A DNA stretch of 64,000 nucleotides, from NCBI GenBank assembly GCA_049997795.1, contig JBEKVT010000001.1, positions 243,751 through 307,750 of the forward strand. Reading direction: 5' to 3'. Within the stretch, counting starts at the first letter, position 1. The number at the start of each line of letters is the position of its first letter. The position numbers and the translations under genes were made by a program. Shown one piece after another: positions 9,839-19,477 of the stretch. The notes beneath the pieces were generated by a model that did no database searches, was not told the origin of the DNA, and was given only the letters and a program-made list of their open reading frames with translations. The DNA is from Minisyncoccia bacterium. Lineage in GTDB: Bacteria > Patescibacteriota > Minisyncoccia > Phycocordibacterales > PALSA-1337.

Positions 9839-10675
9839 TTAAAGGATAAGCTTAAGCCCCTTGATGGGGTCCATAGGATTATACTGCCTCGAAAGGTTTT
9901 CCACTATCTCCTCCAAGAGTTTCGGGTCCTTATTCTCGGCACGGTCGAACGCGCCCGGCGGCAATTCGAGCCTGATCGTTGGGTGGTCGTTCTTCCGGCC
10001 CATGAGCTCCCGGGCGCCGTCGTAATGTGTGTCGTATATGTGGGCGTTCGAAATGGAATGCGAGTAGATCCCCGGTTTGACGCCGAGCTTCTGGGCCAGG
10101 AAGCATTGGAGCAGGGCGAAGCCGGCCACGTCGGCCCGACAGCCCAACATGATGTCGTTCGATCGGACGATGTTATGGAGATGCAAACGGCCGCCGACGA
10201 TGTTGACCGTGAATGTGTACGGGCACGGCACGTTCTTCTTCTTGATCGCCGATAATCCGTCGCTTCCCGGATCCCAGGTGACAACTACGGCTTGGCGCGA
10301 GCTCGGCTCGTTCTTCAAAAGCTCTATGAGGAGCCCCAGCTGGTCGCGGCCGAAATGCTTGCGCCAGCGGTAACCGTAGGCCACCGTCACGACGTCGCCC
10401 GGATTGGTGAATTCATCCCAGATATGGGTGTATTCCCGGAGGAAATCCTCTGGTTTCCGCGCCCCGGAGACGAACCACATCTGTTCGGCCACGAACATCT
10501 TGATGGGAGTCTTGATGAGAGTGAGCAGGGGAAAGCCGTCCTTCTCGAGATCGAGCTGGAAATGGACGCCGACCAGGGCCCTCGTCTCATGGCCGGTGCG
10601 TTCGGAGAATTCGACGATGCCGTTCTCCATGATGTCCTTCACCATATCGCGGTAGATCTCGTCGAACTTGGTCAT
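9839..10675 (-). CDS. thyA: thymidylate synthase-family enzyme (ThyA-like) with Asn-to-Asp substitution at the pyrimidine-specificity position
   Basis: Catalytic Cys in VPCPYTF (PCH region), RSNDIMLG (E. coli RSCDVFLG), then CRADVAGFALL where TS has PFNIASYALL: Asp182 (codon 10130-10132) replaces the invariant Asn. C-terminal HIYDTH matches THLY. Confidence 0.8.
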   Translation of the reverse strand: MTKFDEIYRDMVKDIMENGIVEFSERTGHETRALVGVHFQLDLEKDGFPLLTLIKTPIKMFVAEQMWFVSGARKPEDFLREYTHIWDEFTNPGDVVTVAYGYRWRKHFGRDQLGLLIELLKNEPSSRQAVVVTWDPGSDGLSAIKKKNVPCPYTFTVNIVGGRLHLHNIVRSNDIMLGCRADVAGFALLQCFLAQKLGVKPGIYSHSISNAHIYDTHYDGARELMGRKNDHPTIRLELPPGAFDRAENKDPKLLEEIVENLSRQYNPMDPIKGLKLIL

Positions 10676-10683
10676 GGCCGGCT

Positions 10684-11837: not shown

Positions 11838-11900
11838 TCTCGAGAGCAGATCCTTTGTCCGCCCGCATCCTCATGGGAGCAGGCGGACTTTTTTACCGGT

Positions 11901-13127
11901 ATGCTACAATTTATAACCGTGAAAGACGTCCAAATCCGAAAACTGATCGAAGCCGAGAAGAAAAGGCAGAAAAAGGTCGTCAACCTGATCGCCTCGGAGA
12001 ACTACGTCTCGAAGGACGTGCTCGAGGCCTTGGGTTCGGAGCTTACGAATAAGTATGCCGAAGGCTACCCCGGTCGGCGCTATTACGGCGGCAATGAGAT
12101 CGTCGACAAGATCGAACGCCTCTGCGCCGAGCGCGCCCTCAAGCTCTTCGGGCTCGACCGGAACGAGTGGCACGTGAACGTCCAACCGCTCTCCGGCTCG
12201 CCGGCCAACCTGGCCGTCTACGTGGCCCTTGTGCCTCAGGGCGGTAAGATCATGGGCATGTCGCTCGACCACGGCGGCCACCTGACGCACGGCCACAAGG
12301 TCTCGTTCACCGGCAAATCATGGACGCAGGTCCCTTACGGCATCGACCCGATCACGGAGACCGTGAATTACGACCAGCTCCTCGAGAAAGCCATGAACGA
12401 GAAGCCGGACATCCTGGTGGCCGGCTACACGGCTTACCCACGGGCGATTGACTGGGCCAGGCTGCGCAACGTGGCTGATGCCGCGAACGCCATCTTCATG
12501 GTGGACATGTCCCATGTCGCGGGCTTGGTGGCCGGCGGCGCATACCCGTCGCCCTTTCCGCACGCCGACATCGTCACCACTACCACGCACAAGACTCTGC
12601 GCGGTCCGCGCGCGGCCATGATCTTCGCCAAGAAAGACGCCCGCGAGCTCGACAAGAAGATAGACAAGGCCGTCTTCCCAGGCCTCCAAGGAGGGCCTCA
12701 CATGAATCAAATTGCCGCGGTAGCCGTGGCCTTGAAGGAGGCGTCCACTTCGTCGTTCCGGAGATACGCGGCCCAAGTGGTGAAGAACGCCAGAGCCTTG
12801 GCCGACGAGCTCAAGGGCCGCGGCTGGCGGCTCATATCCGGCGGCACCGATTCGCATCTCATATTGATGGACACCTGGATGAGCGACCTCGTCAACGAGA
12901 AAGGCGCTGGCGGCGTCCCCGGCAAGGAGGGGAGCGAGCGCCTAGAGAAGGAAGGCATCGTCGTCAATAAGAATGCCATACCGTTCGACAGCCGGCCGCC
13001 GGCCGATCCGTCCGGCATCAGGCTCGGCACGGCGGCGGAGACGACCCGCGGCAGGAAAGAGAAGGATTTCAGGAAGATAGCCGACAGGATTGACAAGATC
13101 TTGAAGAAGCGCAATAAGCGGTCCTGA
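11901..13127 (+). CDS. glyA: serine hydroxymethyltransferase
   Basis: LIASENYVS, YAEGYPGRRYYGG, and the PLP-lysine region TTTTHKTLRGPR; 408 aa. Confidence 0.95.
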   Translation: MLQFITVKDVQIRKLIEAEKKRQKKVVNLIASENYVSKDVLEALGSELTNKYAEGYPGRRYYGGNEIVDKIERLCAERALKLFGLDRNEWHVNVQPLSGSPANLAVYVALVPQGGKIMGMSLDHGGHLTHGHKVSFTGKSWTQVPYGIDPITETVNYDQLLEKAMNEKPDILVAGYTAYPRAIDWARLRNVADAANAIFMVDMSHVAGLVAGGAYPSPFPHADIVTTTTHKTLRGPRAAMIFAKKDARELDKKIDKAVFPGLQGGPHMNQIAAVAVALKEASTSSFRRYAAQVVKNARALADELKGRGWRLISGGTDSHLILMDTWMSDLVNEKGAGGVPGKEGSERLEKEGIVVNKNAIPFDSRPPADPSGIRLGTAAETTRGRKEKDFRKIADRIDKILKKRNKRS

Positions 13128-13423: not shown

Positions 13424-15196
13424 ATGTTTTTCATGAAAGAACGATTGACCGAGAAGCTCAAGGCCGTCGCAGCGTCCGTCGGCATCAAGGAAGCCCTCGT
13501 AAGCCTCGAATACCCGACCGACCCGGCTCACGGCGATTTTTCCACGAATGTCGCTTTGGTCGGCGCCGACAAACTTAAGACCAGCCCGCGCGTTCTGGCG
13601 GAAAAGATCGTCGCTGAATTAAAAAAGGACGCACCCGATTTCATCGGTTCAATTGAGATCGCCGGTCCGGGCTTCGTCAACTTCAAGATCAAGGACAAAG
13701 CGCTCGCGGAAGCGGTTGTCGGGATCGCGGCCAACAAGGACGACCTCAAGGGGCCGAAGGCCGATCCCGCGAAAAAGGTGATGGTGGAGTACACTGACCC
13801 GAATCCGTTCAAGGTCTTCCATATCGGCCATCTCATGTCGAACGCCATCGGCGAATCACTGTCCCGGCTCATCGAACATTCCGGCGCGAAGGTCATCCGA
13901 GCGTGCTACCAAGGCGACGTCGGCCTGCATGTGGCCAAGACTATCTGGGGGATAAAATTCTTTCACCCAAACAATATAAAAGATTTCAACAGTCTGAAAA
14001 ATAAAGGCTCTCTTAATGACAGGATGCTCCTTTTAGGAAACGCTTATATAAAAGGCAGCGGGGCTTATGATGCTGCTGATTTATCAGGCTCGGTATCCGG
14101 CGGATCAGCAAAGTCAGATTTACAAAAAGAAATAGATTTAATCAACAAGAAGATTTTTGAAAAATCTGATTCAGAAATCAACGAAATCTACGAGACTGGC
14201 CGGAAATGGAGCTTGGAATATTTCGATTCCGTCTACGCGCGCCTCGGCACTAAGTTCGACAAGCTATTCTTTGAGAGCGAGGTCGGCAAGGCGGGCGTAA
14301 AGGCGGTGAACGAATTCCTCGGCAAGGGAGTCTTCGAGAAAAGCGAAGGCGCGATCGTCTTCAGGGGCGAGAATCATGGATTGCACACCAGAGTCTTCAT
14401 CACTTCGCATGGATTGCCGACCTACGAAGCCAAGGAGCTTGGTTTGAATGAGGAGAAGTTCAGGCTCTGTCCTGACTTGACTGAGTCGGTCATCGTCACC
14501 GGGAACGAGCAGGACGATTATTTCAGGGTGCTGCTCAAGGTATTGTCGTTGACTGCGCCGGAAATCGCGAAGAAGACCAGGCACCTGAGCCACGGCCTGA
14601 TGCGTTTTGCTTCAGGCAAGATGTCGTCGCGCAAAGGGAACATCATATCCGCCGAGTCGTTGATCGACGACATCAAAACCATGGTTTCTAAAAAAATGAT
14701 CGGCCGGGAATTCTCCGCTGCGGAAGCCGATAAAGTCGCCGATCAAGTGGCGATCGCCGCCATCAAATACACCATCCTGCGCCAGTCGATCGGCGGCGAT
14801 GTCATCTTCGATTCGGCCAAGTCGATCTCTTTCGAGGGCGACTCCGGGCCTTACCTCCAATATTCAGCTGTTCGCGCGCAGTCTGTCTTGAATAAGGCCG
14901 GGAAAGCCGCCGCCCCTCCCGCCCGGAAGCTTCCAGACAAAGTCGGACTGCTAGAAAGATTGATCGCCCGCTTCCCGGACGTCGCTCTGCGCGCCCGGAC
15001 CGAATACGCGCCGCAGCAGGTCGCCAGCTATCTGATCGAGCTGGCCGGGGCTTTCAACGGCTTTTACGCGCGCCAGGAGATCATCAACGAAAAAGACCCG
15101 CTCTCGTCTTATTATCTGGCGTTGACGCGGGCGTTCCTCACGACCATGACCGAGGGCCTAGGGCTCCTCGGCATCAAAGTCCCGGACAAGATGTAG
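13424..15196 (+). CDS. argS: arginyl-tRNA synthetase
   Basis: HIGH motif (FHIGHLMSNAIG), class I Rossmann fold and DALR anticodon-binding C-terminus (ends ...GIKVPDKM). Contains a low-GC patch at about 13960-14200. Confidence 0.9.
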   Translation: MFFMKERLTEKLKAVAASVGIKEALVSLEYPTDPAHGDFSTNVALVGADKLKTSPRVLAEKIVAELKKDAPDFIGSIEIAGPGFVNFKIKDKALAEAVVGIAANKDDLKGPKADPAKKVMVEYTDPNPFKVFHIGHLMSNAIGESLSRLIEHSGAKVIRACYQGDVGLHVAKTIWGIKFFHPNNIKDFNSLKNKGSLNDRMLLLGNAYIKGSGAYDAADLSGSVSGGSAKSDLQKEIDLINKKIFEKSDSEINEIYETGRKWSLEYFDSVYARLGTKFDKLFFESEVGKAGVKAVNEFLGKGVFEKSEGAIVFRGENHGLHTRVFITSHGLPTYEAKELGLNEEKFRLCPDLTESVIVTGNEQDDYFRVLLKVLSLTAPEIAKKTRHLSHGLMRFASGKMSSRKGNIISAESLIDDIKTMVSKKMIGREFSAAEADKVADQVAIAAIKYTILRQSIGGDVIFDSAKSISFEGDSGPYLQYSAVRAQSVLNKAGKAAAPPARKLPDKVGLLERLIARFPDVALRARTEYAPQQVASYLIELAGAFNGFYARQEIINEKDPLSSYYLALTRAFLTTMTEGLGLLGIKVPDKM

Positions 15197-15422: not shown

Positions 15423-18400
15423 ATGGCCGATTCACCTGATAGTCTGAAGAAATCCTCTCACGCCGAAAGGGAAGAGCGCATCCTGAAGTTCTGGAAAGAC
15501 AAGGATATCTTCAAGAAGAGCCTCGATAAAGAAGCGCCGAAAGGCGAGTTCGTTTTCTACGAGGGTCCGCCGACGGCCAACGGCCGCCCGGGCATCCATC
15601 ACCTCGAGGCCCGCGCCTTCAAAGACGTTATCCCGCGCTTCCGGACCATGCGCGGCTATCATGTGCGCAGAAAGGGCGGCTGGGACACTCACGGCCTGCC
15701 CGTCGAGCTGCAGGTTGAGAAGGATCTTGGTTTGAAGTCCAAGAAGGAGATCGAGAGCTACGGCATCGAGAAGTTCAACGACAAGTGCAAGGAGAGCGTC
15801 TGGACCTACGTGCGCGAGTGGGAGGATTTCACCAACCGCATGGGGTACTGGGTTGACCTCAAGGACCCATATATTACCTACAAGCCGGAGTACATGGAAT
15901 CGCTCTGGAACATAGTGAAGACCGTCGACAAGAAAGGCCTGCTCTACAAGGACTACAAAGTCGTGCCCTGGTGCCCACGATGTGGTACGGCACTGTCGTC
16001 TCATGAGTTAGCCCAAGGGTATGCGGATGTGAAGGATCTGGCGGTGACGGTGAAGTTCAAATTGAAAGCCGGCCAAAAGATCGGCGATTTTACGACCGAC
16101 GATAAGACTTACATCCTAGCTTGGACGACAACGCCATGGACCTTGCCGGGAAACGTCGGATTGGCGGTCGGTAAAAATATTATCTACAACAGGATTGAAT
16201 TAAATGGCGAACAGTTAATTGCTTCACATGACGCGATAGTTAGGTTGGATATGTTTAAAACCAATCCGAGTTATAAGGTAATTGAAAAAGGAATATCAGG
16301 ATTTAAATTGGTTGGTTTGGAATACGAACCCCTCTACCCGTTCTTAAAAGACAGTATCTCCGGTGCCGAGAAGGAAAAGCTACCGAACGCTTACAAGGTC
16401 TATCTGGCCGACTTCGTCACGACAGAAGACGGCACGGGCGTCGTGCACACGGCAGTCATGTACGGCCAGGACGACTTCGAACTAGGCGTGAAGGTCGGTC
16501 TGCCGAAATATCATCTGGTGAACGAAGACGGGACATTCAAGAAGGAAGCCGGCTTCCTGGCGGGGAAGTTCGTGAAAGACGAAGCGACCGACGTCGAGAT
16601 CATCAAGGACCTGGCACACCGCGGCCTCCTGTTCCACAAAGAGAAGCACGAGCACAGCTATCCTTTCTGCTGGCGATGCCAGACGCCGCTCATCTACTTC
16701 GCCCGCGATTCTTGGTATATCGGGATGTCGAGGCTGCGCGACAAGCTGGTCAAGGAGAACGAGAGCATCCATTGGGAGCCGGAACACATCAAGGAGGGCC
16801 GCTTCGGCGAATGGCTCCGCGAGGTCAAGGACTGGGCCTTTTCCCGCGAGCGCTATTGGGGCACACCTCTCCCCGTATGGGTCTGCGACAGGTGCGGCGC
16901 GAAGAAGGTGGCCGGCTCCGTCGCCGACGTCTCGAGGAAGCCCCGCAACACCTACTATGTCATGCGCCATGGCGAGGCCGGGAATAACGCCAAGGCAGTC
17001 CTGAATTATTCTGAGAGGGACCTGCATCCCCTGACGGAGAAAGGCCGTGGGCAGGTGAGGAAGTCGGCAGAGGGGCTGAAGGGCGCCGGAATAGACGCGA
17101 TATATTGCTCGCCGTTCATCCGCGCCAGGGAGACGGCGCAGCTCGCGGCCGAGGCCATAGGACTGAAGAAGGAAGATGTCAAGATCGAAGAACGCCTGCG
17201 CGAATTCAACATGGGGGATCTCGACGGGGAGCCGATCTCCAGGCTGACGACGGAATTCCCCGACGAAGTCAGGTTCGACAGGTGGCCGGAGGGAGGGGAG
17301 AGCTACGCCGACATCAAAAAGCGCATGGGGAGCTTCCTCTATGAGATGGAAGAGAAACATCAGGGCAAGACCATCCTCATCGTCTCTCACGAGACGCCGC
17401 TCTTCCTCTTAATATCCGCGGCCGAAGGCCTGGATCGCAAGCAGACTCTCGCCATGAAGCCGCAGCACCGCTTCATCAGTAACGCCGAAGTGCGCAAGCT
17501 CGAATTCACGCTCCTGCCGCACGACGCCGAATATGAGCTGGATCTCCACCGCCCTTATATAGACGAGGTAAGGCTTCCTTGTGCCTGCGGCGGAGAGATG
17601 AGGCGCGTCAAGGAAGTCATGGACGTCTGGTTCGATTCCGGGGCGATGCCTTTTGCTCAAGATCACTACCCATTCGAAGGCAAGAGAGGCGGACTTCTCG
17701 GCCGGTTCGGCGGTCAAAAGCTCGCCTACCCGGCTGATTTCATCTCCGAGGCCATCGATCAGACGCGCGGCTGGTTCTACACCTTGCATGCGGTGGGTGT
17801 CCTTATGGGCCGCGGCAAGGCCTTCAAGAACGTCATCTGCCTCGGTCTCATCCTCGACGCCGAAGGCAAGAAGATGTCCAAGTCCGTAGGCAACGTCATA
17901 GATCCAGCGGTCATGATGGACAGATACGGCGCGGATGCCCTGCGCTTCTGGATGTATTCGATCAATCAGCCGGGTGAATCCAAGAACTTCGAAGAGAAGA
18001 CCGTGGACGAGGTCGTCAAGAAGGTCTTCAACCTGATCTCCAATACGACGGTCTTCTACAAGATGTACGCAAAAGCCGACGTTGAACCGTCTTCGGACTC
18101 TGAAAACGTCCTTGATCGCTGGATCGTCGCGCGGCTGAATCAGTTAGTCGCTGATACCACGAAAAATCTGGATGATTACATTCTGTTGGAACCGGCGCGC
18201 GCCATCAGGGATTTCGCCGCAGACCTCTCGCAGTGGTATCTGCGCCGCTCGCGCGGACGATTCAAGGGAGAGGGAAGCGACAAACAAGCCGCACTGGCCA
18301 CGACCAAATACGTCCTACTCACCCTGGCTAAGGTAATGGCACCGTTCACGCCGTTCTTCGCGGAGGAGCTTTACCGGGATGTCGGCGGCGAGAAAGAGAG

Positions 18401-18896
18401 CGTGCATCTCGAGGATTGGCCGGAGGCAGGTTTAATCGACAAAAATGTTTTGATTGGAATGAGTTTTGTCCGTTCATTCGCATCGATGGCCTTAATGCAA
18501 CGCATGGAAAATAAAATCCCAGTGCGTCAACCGCTGTTAAAAATAAAACATAAAGGTAAAATCCCTGATTTTTGGAATAAGGAATTGGAACAAATCTTGA
18601 TGGACGAGGTGAATGTCAAAGCGGTTGTCTTCGACGGTAAGATGAGCCAAGACGATCCTCCGGTTAAATTAGACACGACCATCACCCCGGAGCTCAAGGA
18701 AGAAGGTGGCCTGCGAGAGCTCCTGCGCAGGATCCAGGACTTGAGGAAAGAAAAAGGATTGTCGGTCAATGACCCGGCGATCTTGACGGCCACCGGTGAT
18801 TTGAAGGACCTCATTTCCAAGCACGAAAGAGAGATAAAGGCCGCCACTCACTTGACGGAGATAAGATTCGGCGATTCGTTCGAGCTCAAGACGTAA
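15423..18896 (+). CDS. ileS: isoleucyl-tRNA synthetase carrying an in-frame inserted histidine-phosphatase (PGAM-like) domain
   Basis: HIGH-like PPTANGRPGIHH, KMSKS (GKKMSKSVGN), editing domain, C-terminal extension. Residues about 505-715 (nt about 16935-17570) form a complete RHGE histidine phosphatase domain (YYVMRHGEAGNN ... IRARETAQ ... ILIVSHETPL) between CDRCG and CACGG. Confidence 0.9.
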   Translation: MADSPDSLKKSSHAEREERILKFWKDKDIFKKSLDKEAPKGEFVFYEGPPTANGRPGIHHLEARAFKDVIPRFRTMRGYHVRRKGGWDTHGLPVELQVEKDLGLKSKKEIESYGIEKFNDKCKESVWTYVREWEDFTNRMGYWVDLKDPYITYKPEYMESLWNIVKTVDKKGLLYKDYKVVPWCPRCGTALSSHELAQGYADVKDLAVTVKFKLKAGQKIGDFTTDDKTYILAWTTTPWTLPGNVGLAVGKNIIYNRIELNGEQLIASHDAIVRLDMFKTNPSYKVIEKGISGFKLVGLEYEPLYPFLKDSISGAEKEKLPNAYKVYLADFVTTEDGTGVVHTAVMYGQDDFELGVKVGLPKYHLVNEDGTFKKEAGFLAGKFVKDEATDVEIIKDLAHRGLLFHKEKHEHSYPFCWRCQTPLIYFARDSWYIGMSRLRDKLVKENESIHWEPEHIKEGRFGEWLREVKDWAFSRERYWGTPLPVWVCDRCGAKKVAGSVADVSRKPRNTYYVMRHGEAGNNAKAVLNYSERDLHPLTEKGRGQVRKSAEGLKGAGIDAIYCSPFIRARETAQLAAEAIGLKKEDVKIEERLREFNMGDLDGEPISRLTTEFPDEVRFDRWPEGGESYADIKKRMGSFLYEMEEKHQGKTILIVSHETPLFLLISAAEGLDRKQTLAMKPQHRFISNAEVRKLEFTLLPHDAEYELDLHRPYIDEVRLPCACGGEMRRVKEVMDVWFDSGAMPFAQDHYPFEGKRGGLLGRFGGQKLAYPADFISEAIDQTRGWFYTLHAVGVLMGRGKAFKNVICLGLILDAEGKKMSKSVGNVIDPAVMMDRYGADALRFWMYSINQPGESKNFEEKTVDEVVKKVFNLISNTTVFYKMYAKADVEPSSDSENVLDRWIVARLNQLVADTTKNLDDYILLEPARAIRDFAADLSQWYLRRSRGRFKGEGSDKQAALATTKYVLLTLAKVMAPFTPFFAEELYRDVGGEKESVHLEDWPEAGLIDKNVLIGMSFVRSFASMALMQRMENKIPVRQPLLKIKHKGKIPDFWNKELEQILMDEVNVKAVVFDGKMSQDDPPVKLDTTITPELKEEGGLRELLRRIQDLRKEKGLSVNDPAILTATGDLKDLISKHEREIKAATHLTEIRFGDSFELKT

Positions 18897-19477
18897 TGTA
18901 CGCGATCCACACCACTCCCGGCCTCGTCATCGATTCGCGCCCGTACGGCGAGGCCGGCAAGAGGCTCTCCATCTTCACCCGAGACTTCGGGCTCGTCTTG
19001 GCTACCGCCCAAGGCATCAGGCTCCAGAGGTCCAAATTGCGCTACCACGCCCAGGATTATTCTTTCGGCGAGTTCTCGCTCGTAAGAGGCAGGGAATCTT
19101 GGCGGCTGGTGAACGCGGGCGGGTCCTCGCTTGCGCTCCCGAGGCGCGCCGACCGGGAATTGATCGCCCGGGTCGCCTCCCTCCTCCGGCGGCTGCTTCC
19201 GGGCGAAGAGGCCAATCCCGAGCTGTTCGGGCGCCTGGAAGCGTGCGCCGCCTTCCTTGCCGGCGGCCCCCTGGCGGACGGGGAAAAGCTGAAGACCTTG
19301 GAGTCCATCACCGTTTTCGGCATCCTCCGCGCTCTCGGCTACATCGGCGAGGACAAGGCGCTGGCTCGATACGCCGGCCCGCTTGACCTTACGCCGGAGC
19401 TCGTCGACCTCGCTGTCCCGAAACGGGGAGCCATGAACCGCCATATCAACAAAGCCCTGAAAGAGAGCCACTTATGA
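18896..19477 (+). CDS. recO: DNA repair protein RecO
   Basis: N-terminal OB-fold (GLVIDSRPYGEAGKRLSIFTRDFGLVLATAQGIR); start overlaps the ileS stop (TAATG). Confidence 0.8.
   Translation: MYAIHTTPGLVIDSRPYGEAGKRLSIFTRDFGLVLATAQGIRLQRSKLRYHAQDYSFGEFSLVRGRESWRLVNAGGSSLALPRRADRELIARVASLLRRLLPGEEANPELFGRLEACAAFLAGGPLADGEKLKTLESITVFGILRALGYIGEDKALARYAGPLDLTPELVDLAVPKRGAMNRHINKALKESHL

Follow-up and report, generated by a model that had tools for sequence, protein, structure and literature searches.

A histidine phosphatase domain nested in the CP3 zinc knuckle of isoleucyl-tRNA synthetase in Patescibacteria

The window analysed here, a 64,000-nucleotide stretch of a Minisyncoccia genome, encodes an isoleucyl-tRNA synthetase (IleRS) that contains a complete branch-1 histidine phosphatase (HP), placed in frame between the Cys pairs of one CP3 zinc knuckle. 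This had been proposed in the initial annotation and was borne out by the present analysis. The nested HP-IleRS is standard equipment of a large Patescibacteria clade (Parcubacteria/Paceibacteria), with Taylor-, Nomura-, Zambryski-, Yanofsky- and Tagabacteria among its members, besides others. HP appears to be a separable, probably active small-molecule phosphomonoesterase riding on IleRS.

The ileS gene, coding for a type-2 IleRS with the nested phosphatase, is a single unbroken ORF (15423..18896, + strand, as are all features given below) of 1157 aa plus stop, and the continuous reading frame described earlier was thus found again. It passed the NCBIfam ileS equivalog TIGR00392 over its full length (870.8 bits, for a cutoff of 621.4), and the Pfam domains of the product were tRNA-synt_1, His_Phos_1, Anticodon_1 and DUF5915. 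The last of these, at aa 1080-1152, corresponds to the type-2 C-terminal region; the protein has the type-2 tRNA-binding region and not the type-1 zinc-binding domain, and its structural match covers the 8C8V C-terminus. With phmmer, the top matches in the PDB were IleRS2 8C8W (E=5.6e-241) and 1ILE. The AF2 model of the product had a pLDDT of 88.8 and a pTM of 0.80, with Foldseek TM scores, normalised to the target, of 0.80 to 8C8V and 0.90 to 1ILE.

The class I signature is present in the non-canonical form G-I-H-H (aa 57-60, 15591..15602). H60 was invariant among 118 orthologues, and G57, I58 and H59 were at least 90% conserved. Mupirocin hyper-resistance has been linked to this IleRS2 variant, G/AXHH (PMC10485003). 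The CP1 editing-domain core (16119..16478) comprises WTTTPWT (aa 234-240) and GTGVVHTAVMYGQDD (aa 337-351); residues T235-T240, G337-G339, H342 and D351 were invariant in the same orthologues, and the sequence indicates a CP1 editing domain with its Thr-rich peptide and conserved His and Asp. Also invariant were K817, M818 and K820 of the KMSKS loop (K817-M818-S819-K820-S821, aa 817-821, 17871..17885). The motifs of an IleRS are therefore all intact, from the GXHH signature, the KMSKS loop and the editing domain to the two Zn sites and the C-terminus of type 2, and this part of the protein would charge tRNA-Ile normally. Membership of two special IleRS families was rejected: the product scored 781 against a cutoff of 1900 for the MupA/MupB mupirocin-resistance enzymes (NF000257/8), and 299 bits, for a cutoff of 1999, with ileS_w_GNAT (NF040702).

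Alignment to the Priestia megaterium IleRS2 8C8W paired query residues 11-504 with chain residues 8-475, and 700-1113 with 480-892, which means that ~195 residues (505-699, nt 16935..17519) stand in for a loop of ~4 residues. The CP3 zinc knuckle is built of a first Cys pair, C488-D-R-C491 (16884..16895), and a second one, C720-A-C722 (17580..17588), all four Cys being 99% conserved; Yanofskybacteria-like orthologues have CxxC at the second position. In Thermus thermophilus IleRS, CP3 also carries a Zn motif (PMC7191050). The insert lies 13 residues past the CxxC and 20 ahead of the CxC, in the distal loop of the knuckle. The description of the Cys pairs as split by the insert is thus right as to its place between them, but the knuckle itself is undisturbed. 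GC content, called normal before, was 0.595 in the insert and 0.539 in the remaining gene, inside the gene's own range, and GC3 was slightly higher (0.795 versus 0.704). A Pfam search of the product detected no Hint, intein or homing-endonuclease domain, in keeping with the reported lack of intein signatures. The same 1157-aa protein was found, identical, in two independent assemblies (JGI 3300018057 and ENA ERZ27250177), which together with the continuous ORF rules out an assembly chimera or a frameshift at the junctions.

The domain itself (aa 505-699) matched His_Phos_1 (PF00300) at residues 512-695, between the two tRNA-synt_1 halves, with E=1.8e-38 and 132.6 bits for a cutoff of 21.7, over profile positions 2-181 of 194. 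Its RHG motif (16965..16973) consists of R515, the nucleophile H516 (nt 16968-16970) and G517; among 121 orthologues the first two were 100% and the third 99% conserved, and two distant orthologues had RHS in place of RHG. Invariant as well were N522 (16986..16988), the phosphate-pocket Asn and counterpart of N15 of the A. aeolicus HFP (PMC12051542); R567 (17121..17123), the second phosphate-pocket Arg, in IRARETAQ; E594 (17202..17204), the probable general acid/base, which in the alignment falls on the Glu that donates the proton in PhoE and HFP; H656 (17388..17390), the second catalytic His, in IVSHETP; and also E626 and R634. The coordinates first assigned to the two His and to the Arg of IRARETAQ were all correct. 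Roles of the RHG His, second Arg, second His, pocket Asn and acid/base Glu are described in PMC12051542. The same active-site residues were invariant in 80 sequences of the free HP family (see below). The insert evolves faster than the IleRS core (mean pairwise identity of 45% versus 70%), yet its active site is under purifying selection.

The insert has the alpha/beta fold of the superfamily, and its top structural neighbours, phosphoserine phosphatase, GpgP and PhoE, belong to the capped class. The SixA-like label that it had first received was accordingly replaced by capped PhoE/PspA/GpgP-like. None of the equivalogs tried was reached: scores were 85 for CobC (cutoff 163), 87 for dPGM_arch (cutoff 225), 61 for PspA (cutoff 350) and 37 for SixA (cutoff 74.5), and GpmB was likewise under its cutoff. 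In PHROGs, HP matched solely a generic HP family of unknown function. The PADLOC defence-protein models gave no match to the insert or to its free homologue at E<=0.01, and a role in anti-phage defence was set aside. The 64-kb window holds no second HP paralogue.

All of the best 120 full-length homologues (59-71% identity) carried PF00300 in the same architecture. At 77 of 79 genome loci the match fell within the IleS reading frame, which was ~1120-1250 aa long if neither interrupted nor truncated at the end of a contig; the nested architecture is common to 77 species-representative Parcubacteria/Paceibacteria loci. The survey of orthologues suggested at the outset thus recovered the same insertion throughout; its junctions are common to more than 120 orthologues, and the insert co-diverges with its host gene across species-level genomes. 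The gene neighbourhood is conserved too. In the window, argS (13424..15196; Pfam Arg_tRNA_synt_N, tRNA-synt_1d and DALR_1) lies upstream, and a recO-like gene (18896..19477; Pfam RecO_N), whose start overlaps the ileS stop, lies downstream. Among the fused-type loci, 51 of 55 had argS upstream and 56 of 62 had recO downstream; in the split type, where HP is a gene of its own, argS was upstream at all 5 loci. With argS-ileS-recO synteny kept over the 77 species-level loci, the fusion is old and vertically inherited, as the initial annotation had supposed in calling it ancient. We also observed glyA upstream of argS, in the window and at 20 other loci.

In sister lineages, the same HP is a separate gene of ~190 aa directly upstream of an insert-less ileS. 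The five free HPs sampled all lay between argS and such an ileS, and ten further free-HP loci were found starting from the IleRS side. Termini of the free HP equal the insert boundaries, and in one locus (L080) its gene shares an ATGA overlap with ileS; translation of the two would be coupled. Free and inserted forms were never seen together within +/-6 kb. One locus, L059, had been considered as an intermediate with both, and was discarded, its extra gene being a different HP paralogue of ~270 aa, 26% identical. Inserted copies were mapped to sites A, A2, B and C and to tandem arrangements, some IleRSs holding 2-4 copies in differing surface loops; site C is remote from the acceptor end and adjoins the anticodon-binding domain. 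In the set of 150 sequences most closely related to the insert, all host proteins of at least 700 aa were IleRSs. An IleRS-anchored metagenome scan returned 19 loci with at least 51% identity and room upstream, 10 of which had no HP within 4 kb (IleRS identities of 51-56% for these HP-less relatives), and this rules out an obligatory HP-IleRS partnership. The NJ tree of HP domains was star-like and did not resolve the number of insertion events. The IleRS core tree, by NJ only, suggests that the split form derived from the fused one.

How do the two activities relate? We consider it probable, though far from certain, that the protein is a genuine two-enzyme polypeptide, with a separable HP that cleaves a small diffusible phosphomonoester and a fusion that mainly ties its expression and location to IleRS. 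The HP would be globular and capped, and stick out of the CP3 zinc knuckle at its distal loop. Following the family mechanism, R515, R567, H656 and N522 would hold the terminal phosphate, H516 would attack it to form phospho-His, and E594 would protonate the leaving group, then activate water. We infer that the domain is catalytically competent, and that it is a module whose cycle runs independently of aminoacylation and not a geometrically coupled third site of the synthetase. Its substrate is likely to be a small diffusible phosphomonoester, because HP is found free, at varying sites, in 1 to 4 copies, or not at all. By the fusion, HP would be held 1:1, in expression and location, to an essential, constitutively made enzyme. 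The expression welded into the synthetase, used in the initial annotation, is correct in that the domain is fused in frame, but it overstates the coupling, since the module is a free gene beside ileS in sister lineages and is missing near some close IleRS relatives.

The main alternative, which we find less plausible and yet worth serious attention, is that HP forms a third active site of the synthetase, mechanistically coupled to IleRS or to tRNA-Ile. In its stronger version, which is unlikely, HP would be a dedicated IleRS partner whose site conditions aminoacylation in cis, or in trans in split lineages. A coupled site might act ahead of charging and free the tRNA 3' end of a 2'/3'-(pyro)phosphate; it might hydrolyse, at the synthetic site, the AMP product or a phosphorylated inhibitor; or it might reverse phosphorylation of IleRS. 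A dedicated partner might clear the tRNA-Ile CCA end of a blocking 2'/3'-(pyro)phosphate, break down AMP product or a phosphorylated antimetabolite directed at IleRS, or undo an inhibitory phosphorylation of the synthetase. The repeated use of IleRS as host, which a pure expression-level rationale does not explain, hints at a real functional tie, and high pLDDT through both linkers of the model suggests a fixed, not floppy, orientation of HP that would fit a geometric role. If such a partnership were true, a class I aminoacyl-tRNA synthetase (aaRS) would contain a quality-control or repair activity of a kind not known before, and the recurrent gain of as many as four such domains by IleRS alone would be accounted for. 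A required geometry is argued against by the varying insertion place, including site C, by the varying copy number, by the free form and by the absence of the module near some close relatives. In addition, the capped fold resembles small-molecule enzymes, unlike the capless protein phosphatase SixA, no PADLOC match was obtained, and the IleRS core tree leads us to infer that adjacency could be a by-product of duplication followed by degeneration.

A non-catalytic HP, serving as a structural, oligomerisation or ligand-sensing module that might for instance hold IleRS as a dimer or adjust charging in response to a phospho-metabolite, seems improbable. Close structural relatives such as iPSP1 and HFP are dimers (PMC12051542), the predicted orientation is rigid, and a pocket can be conserved for binding alone. 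Against this, the nucleophile His, both Arg, the second His, Asn and Glu do not vary over 80 free and more than 120 fused sequences, whereas identity in the remainder of the domain falls to ~45%, a pattern typical of active enzymes, and the acid/base Glu would be needless for a pure sensor. Finally, an artefact or selfish insertion (a chimera, a frameshifted gene pair, an intein or a recent mobile element), for which nothing specific speaks beyond the slightly higher GC3, is refuted in practice by the continuous ORF, the two assemblies, the shared junctions, the lack of a Hint domain, the kept synteny and co-divergence with the host, and by an insert that is a metabolic enzyme fold occupying the same site in all of the best 120 homologues.

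As for the substrate of a separable phosphomonoesterase, a small acidic phosphoester of the phosphoserine or phosphoglycerate type is our tentative proposal, and a nucleotide-type monoester such as AMP is a more doubtful one. By analogy, the activity of the top structural neighbours on phosphoserine and phosphoglycerate-type esters hints weakly at the former. The proposal stays a guess, since near-identical HP folds have unrelated substrates (PMC12051542). Adjacency of glyA (SHMT), considered as support for a phosphoserine phosphatase, was dropped as such and kept as a weak hint because glyA linkage is absent from split-type loci. The initial annotation assigned no activity from sequence, a caution that we find appropriate.

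Few known enzymes are as conserved as the aminoacyl-tRNA synthetases, whose acquired accessory domains each proved meaningful, whether in editing, tRNA binding or signalling. Here a complete second enzyme is nested in the IleRS zinc knuckle and fixed throughout a major class of the Candidate Phyla Radiation (CPR), and offers a clean natural experiment of domain insertion and fission inside an essential gene. Full-text literature searches returned no description of an HP-containing aaRS, and neither a phosphatase nor the CPR comes up in a 2026 preprint on how IleRS domains evolved. HP-IleRS sequences are already in public databases, as 'class I tRNA ligase family protein' or 'isoleucyl-tRNA synthetase', names that hide the nested phosphatase. 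HP would mark a phosphatase activity evidently needed by organisms with minimal genomes, and the identity of its substrate would fill a gap in the sparse CPR metabolic map (lower glycolysis or the supply of serine, for example) or bring to light a new auxiliary reaction of tRNA charging. The GXHH signature, for its part, bears on how widespread intrinsic mupirocin resistance is in uncultured bacteria.

Compared with known systems, the window protein is of the same family and domain order as P. megaterium IleRS2 (8C8U/V/W) and T. thermophilus IleRS (1ILE), and shares with these type-2 enzymes the CP-core and CP3 Cys motifs, KMSKS and the DUF5915 region. With hyper-resistant IleRS2 it shares the non-canonical GXHH signature (PMC10485003). 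Unlike solved IleRS2, it has a 195-aa HP domain in place of the ~4-residue loop at the tip of the CP3 knuckle. To our knowledge, no solved or described IleRS carries an HP domain at this knuckle. The capped branch-1 HPs compared, i.e. H. thermophilus phosphoserine phosphatase iPSP1 (4IJ5), mycobacterial glucosyl-3-phosphoglycerate phosphatase (6S2Q), Bacillus PhoE (1H2E), A. aeolicus HFP (9MMH) and CobC, are only 24-29% identical to the insert and are free-standing, whereas the insert is nested in another enzyme. HP domains do occur in other fusions, such as the M. tuberculosis RNase H/acid phosphatase Rv2228c (NF005567; the window protein scored 96 for a cutoff of 326), the Nudix-HP protein MutT1 and TFIIIC tau55, but these are end-to-end, not nested, and none involves an aminoacyl-tRNA synthetase. 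Another IleRS lineage, ileS_w_GNAT (NF040702), hosts an accessory catalytic domain, an N-acetyltransferase, and a multi-domain relative (P0369) has HP at the same CP3 site and a GNAT domain further on; the window protein differs from both in having no GNAT domain. The nearest counterpart is the free HP family of sister Parcubacteria (P0066, 484 members at E<=1e-10), 34-44% identical to the insert, which has the same invariant residues and the same argS-(HP)-ileS-recO neighbourhood as the fused form, but is made as a separate polypeptide, next to a partner IleRS with a short knuckle loop.

The window IleS is encoded by a single unbroken ORF of 1157 aa (15423..18896, +), which scores 870.8 bits against TIGR00392, the NCBIfam equivalog for isoleucine-tRNA ligase (cutoff 621.4). 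Pfam matches were obtained with tRNA-synt_1, Anticodon_1, DUF5915 and His_Phos_1, the last (PF00300, E=1.8e-38) covering residues 512-695, between both halves of the catalytic domain. The histidine phosphatase (HP) domain announced by the initial annotation is therefore recovered by profile search, and the residues and nucleotide coordinates proposed for it are exact: R515-H516-G517 (16965-16973, +), R567, H656, C488xxC491 and C720xC722. Compared to the type-2 enzyme (IleRS2) of P. megaterium (8C8W), residues 11-504 align with chain positions 8-475, and residues 700-1113 with 480-892. Because the alignment breaks there, some 195 residues (505-699; nt 16935-17519, +), hereafter the insert, stand where IleRS2 has about 4, in a loop. 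The region, the CP3 subdomain of IleRS, carries a zinc motif in T. thermophilus and differs in topology among IleRS lineages (PMC7191050). The insert starts 13 residues past CxxC and ends 20 residues ahead of CxC. The Cys pairs flank it and the domain protrudes, as had been proposed, here from the distal loop of a zinc knuckle that itself remains intact. In the AlphaFold2 model (118 orthologues; mean pLDDT 88.8, pTM 0.80), pLDDT is 94-98 in the insert, in its two linkers and in the strands of the knuckle, and comparison with IleRS2 structures gives TM values, normalised to the target, of 0.80 (8C8V) and 0.90 (1ILE). Antisense ORFs of up to 302 aa, including 16482-17390 (-), overlap ileS; they look like the usual consequence of third codon positions rich in GC (GC3 0.70-0.80).

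The survey of IleS orthologues suggested in the initial annotation found the domain widely. In a scan of one genome per species, 79 loci had matches, and in 77 of them the match lay within the IleS reading frame (~1120-1250 aa long at loci without an interruption or a truncation at a contig end). PF00300 was likewise present in 120 of the 120 best full-length homologues (1115-1242 aa, 59-71% identity). The genome records of the scan bear the names Candidatus Taylor-, Nomura-, Zambryski-, Yanofsky- and Tagabacteria, Paceibacterota and Parcubacteria. Synteny with the window is conserved, argS preceding ileS at 51 of 55 loci and recO following it at 56 of 62. An identical 1157-aa protein was independently assembled in one JGI and one ENA metagenome, which, together with the 120 homologues and the conserved synteny, excludes an artefact. 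As no intein-type domain was detected in the window IleS by Pfam, and insert composition is unremarkable, the earlier reading of an ancient, non-mobile, in-frame fusion stands. We conclude that an intact IleRS2 with a complete HP nested in its CP3 knuckle is lineage-wide and vertically inherited.

A few records were irregular. In one long-read MAG, HP and IleS pieces are spread over two contigs (L014, CAVYBN010000001.1, and L008), with a second HP match on the opposite strand (L014, 7798-8363, -) just past a truncated IleS; interrupted frames were also seen in loci L002 and L065. Errors in assembly or reading frame, not biology, are the probable cause. Many TPA metagenome bins with a fused IleRS bear the title 'uncultured Candidatus Saccharibacteria', although their gene order is of the Parcubacteria type, so that the title looks generic; the only true stand-alone Saccharibacteria matches (L078 and L079; 222 aa, 33% identity) lie away from ileS.

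Little or no variation was seen, over 118-121 orthologues, in the signature motifs of IleRS: G57-I58-H59-H60, KMSKS (817-821), the editing motifs WTTTPWT and GTG..H..D, the CP-core CPRC/CWRC pair and the CP3 cysteines. At aa 57-60 (15591-15602, +), G-I-H-H takes the place of the class I 'HIGH' signature, with H60 invariant and the three other residues at least 90% conserved; such a non-canonical G/AXHH gives IleRS2 mupirocin hyper-resistance (Brkic et al., PMC10485003). The second class I signature varies in the clade with nested HP, since about half of these orthologues (e.g. L010, L013, L016-L018) miss the strict pattern KMS[KR]S. Over the 118-121 orthologues, the insert has R515, H516, N522, R567, E594, E626, R634 and H656 invariant, although this domain diverges more quickly than the synthetase core (45% vs 70% mean pairwise identity); two distant orthologues have RHS in place of RHG, the Arg-His pair being kept. 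R515, H516, N522, R567, E594 and H656 correspond to R8, H9, N15, R58, E82 and H149 of a recently solved family member, which make up the phosphate pocket, with the His nucleophile and the Glu proton donor (PMC12051542). Judged from these motifs and residues, both enzymes look functional.

An exhaustive HMMER search with the insert yielded 19,455 matches at E<=1e-3 and 1,837 at E<=1e-10, which were then mapped with Pfam and HMMs. The 150 sequences closest to the insert included no host protein of 700 aa or longer other than IleRSs, and HP domains were found at several IleRS positions (core-HMM coordinates). Most matches occupy the CP3 site of the window, in tandem in P0358 (two copies) and P0243 (three, plus one at ~430-443). 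Other sites lie just past the second Cys pair (P0339), after DxWFxSG at ~556 (site B; P0262, P0339, P0355) and at ~682, ahead of the anticodon-binding domain (site C; P0262, P0334, P0355). These six IleRSs carry two to four HPs in different surface loops. RH[G/A] is kept in every copy that could be checked. P0243, with four, lacks the knuckle cysteines and is on a short contig. The B+C type is robust: P0262 (1419 aa, two HPs) has six cluster members on contigs of up to 1.06 Mb, with purA, DAHP synthase and an SLH protein as neighbours instead of argS and recO. A singleton cluster, the 1066-aa IleRS relative P0369 (JGI contig of 11,293 bp), has three foreign in-frame domains: inside CP1 an IS200-like Y1_Tnp transposase domain (aa 340-461), at the CP3 site His_Phos_1 (680-854) and, past DxWFxS, a GNAT acetyltransferase (935-1063). 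As a singleton it may be a gene-calling or assembly artefact. It may relate to NCBIfam NF040702 'ileS_w_GNAT'.

The phosphatase also exists as a free gene. P0066, a 190-aa HP 41% identical to the insert and with termini at the insert boundaries, is encoded between argS and a 957-aa ileS devoid of PF00300, with recO next in order; the P0066 stop and the ileS start overlap in ATGA, and the partner IleRS retains CKEC...CEC around a short loop. The arrangement recurs for four further members of the family, each from a different assembly. The family, with 484 members at E<=1e-10, has the same invariant residues as the insert. Free and nested copies were never found together within +/-6 kb. In one of the four further split loci (L085, 5652-6819), an RHH antitoxin, a ParE/YafQ-like toxin and an HD_3 protein (YfbR-like nucleotidase family) lie between the free HP and ileS. 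Another locus (L059, 3395-3943; JAHFNC010000005.1) has a second, distant branch-1 HP gene (~270 aa, 26% identical to the insert), outside the P0066 family, between argS and an ileS that itself has a nested HP. In a neighbour-joining tree of the IleRS core without HP (no support values), split-type enzymes are nested inside the fused-type radiation, which suggests that the nested state is the older one here. The tree is compatible with our proposal that ileS[HP] was duplicated in tandem and that the two copies then degenerated reciprocally, which would leave a free HP gene directly upstream of ileS. In a scan of 80 metagenomic loci from the IleRS side, 10 had an HP directly upstream of ileS. 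Among loci with at least 51% identity and enough upstream sequence, 9 had an HP and 10, including two with argS upstream, did not; IleRS therefore has no need of an HP nearby.

The closest structural neighbours of the insert are the phosphoserine phosphatase iPSP1 (22.4), glucosyl-3-phosphoglycerate phosphatase (21.9), PhoE (21.0), a riboflavin-pathway HFP (20.8) and CobC (19.7), with the capless SixA at 15.8 (136 residues aligned). Sequence searches agree (PhoE, E=1.2e-14; PSP, E=1.4e-13), and the window IleS reached no specific NCBIfam HP equivalog cutoff. In the window, glyA (serine hydroxymethyltransferase; 11838-13124, +) is directly upstream of argS, and a thymidylate synthase gene (9842-10681, -) is near it; the order glyA-argS-ileS[HP]-recO is kept in 20 fetched loci and absent from split-type loci. 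The top structural neighbours and the position of glyA in the window and 20 other loci hint weakly at small acidic phosphoesters as the substrate class. A specific substrate is not assignable from the fold, since near-identical HP folds act on unrelated substrates (PMC12051542).

A free form exists, the copy number varies, and the insertion sites differ, one being remote from the acceptor end. The HP therefore probably hydrolyses a small, diffusible phosphomonoester, instead of working in strict geometric coupling to the synthetic or editing sites. The main alternative is a mechanistic tie to tRNA-Ile or IleRS chemistry, for which the host specificity is striking and the linkers are predicted to be rigid. 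A non-catalytic domain is unlikely, and the insert would be active by the standard phospho-His mechanism. With a diffusible substrate, the fusion would mainly tie HP dosage and location to IleRS.

Despite the Pfam matches, public records give the fused proteins no other name than 'class I tRNA ligase family protein' or 'isoleucyl-tRNA synthetase'. We found no published description of an HP-containing aaRS in open-access full text, so that a mention elsewhere is possible, and a 2026 preprint on IleRS domain evolution does not mention HP-bearing IleRS. The window IleS joins the aaRSs with an accessory catalytic domain, one that is here nested, multiplied and also found split.
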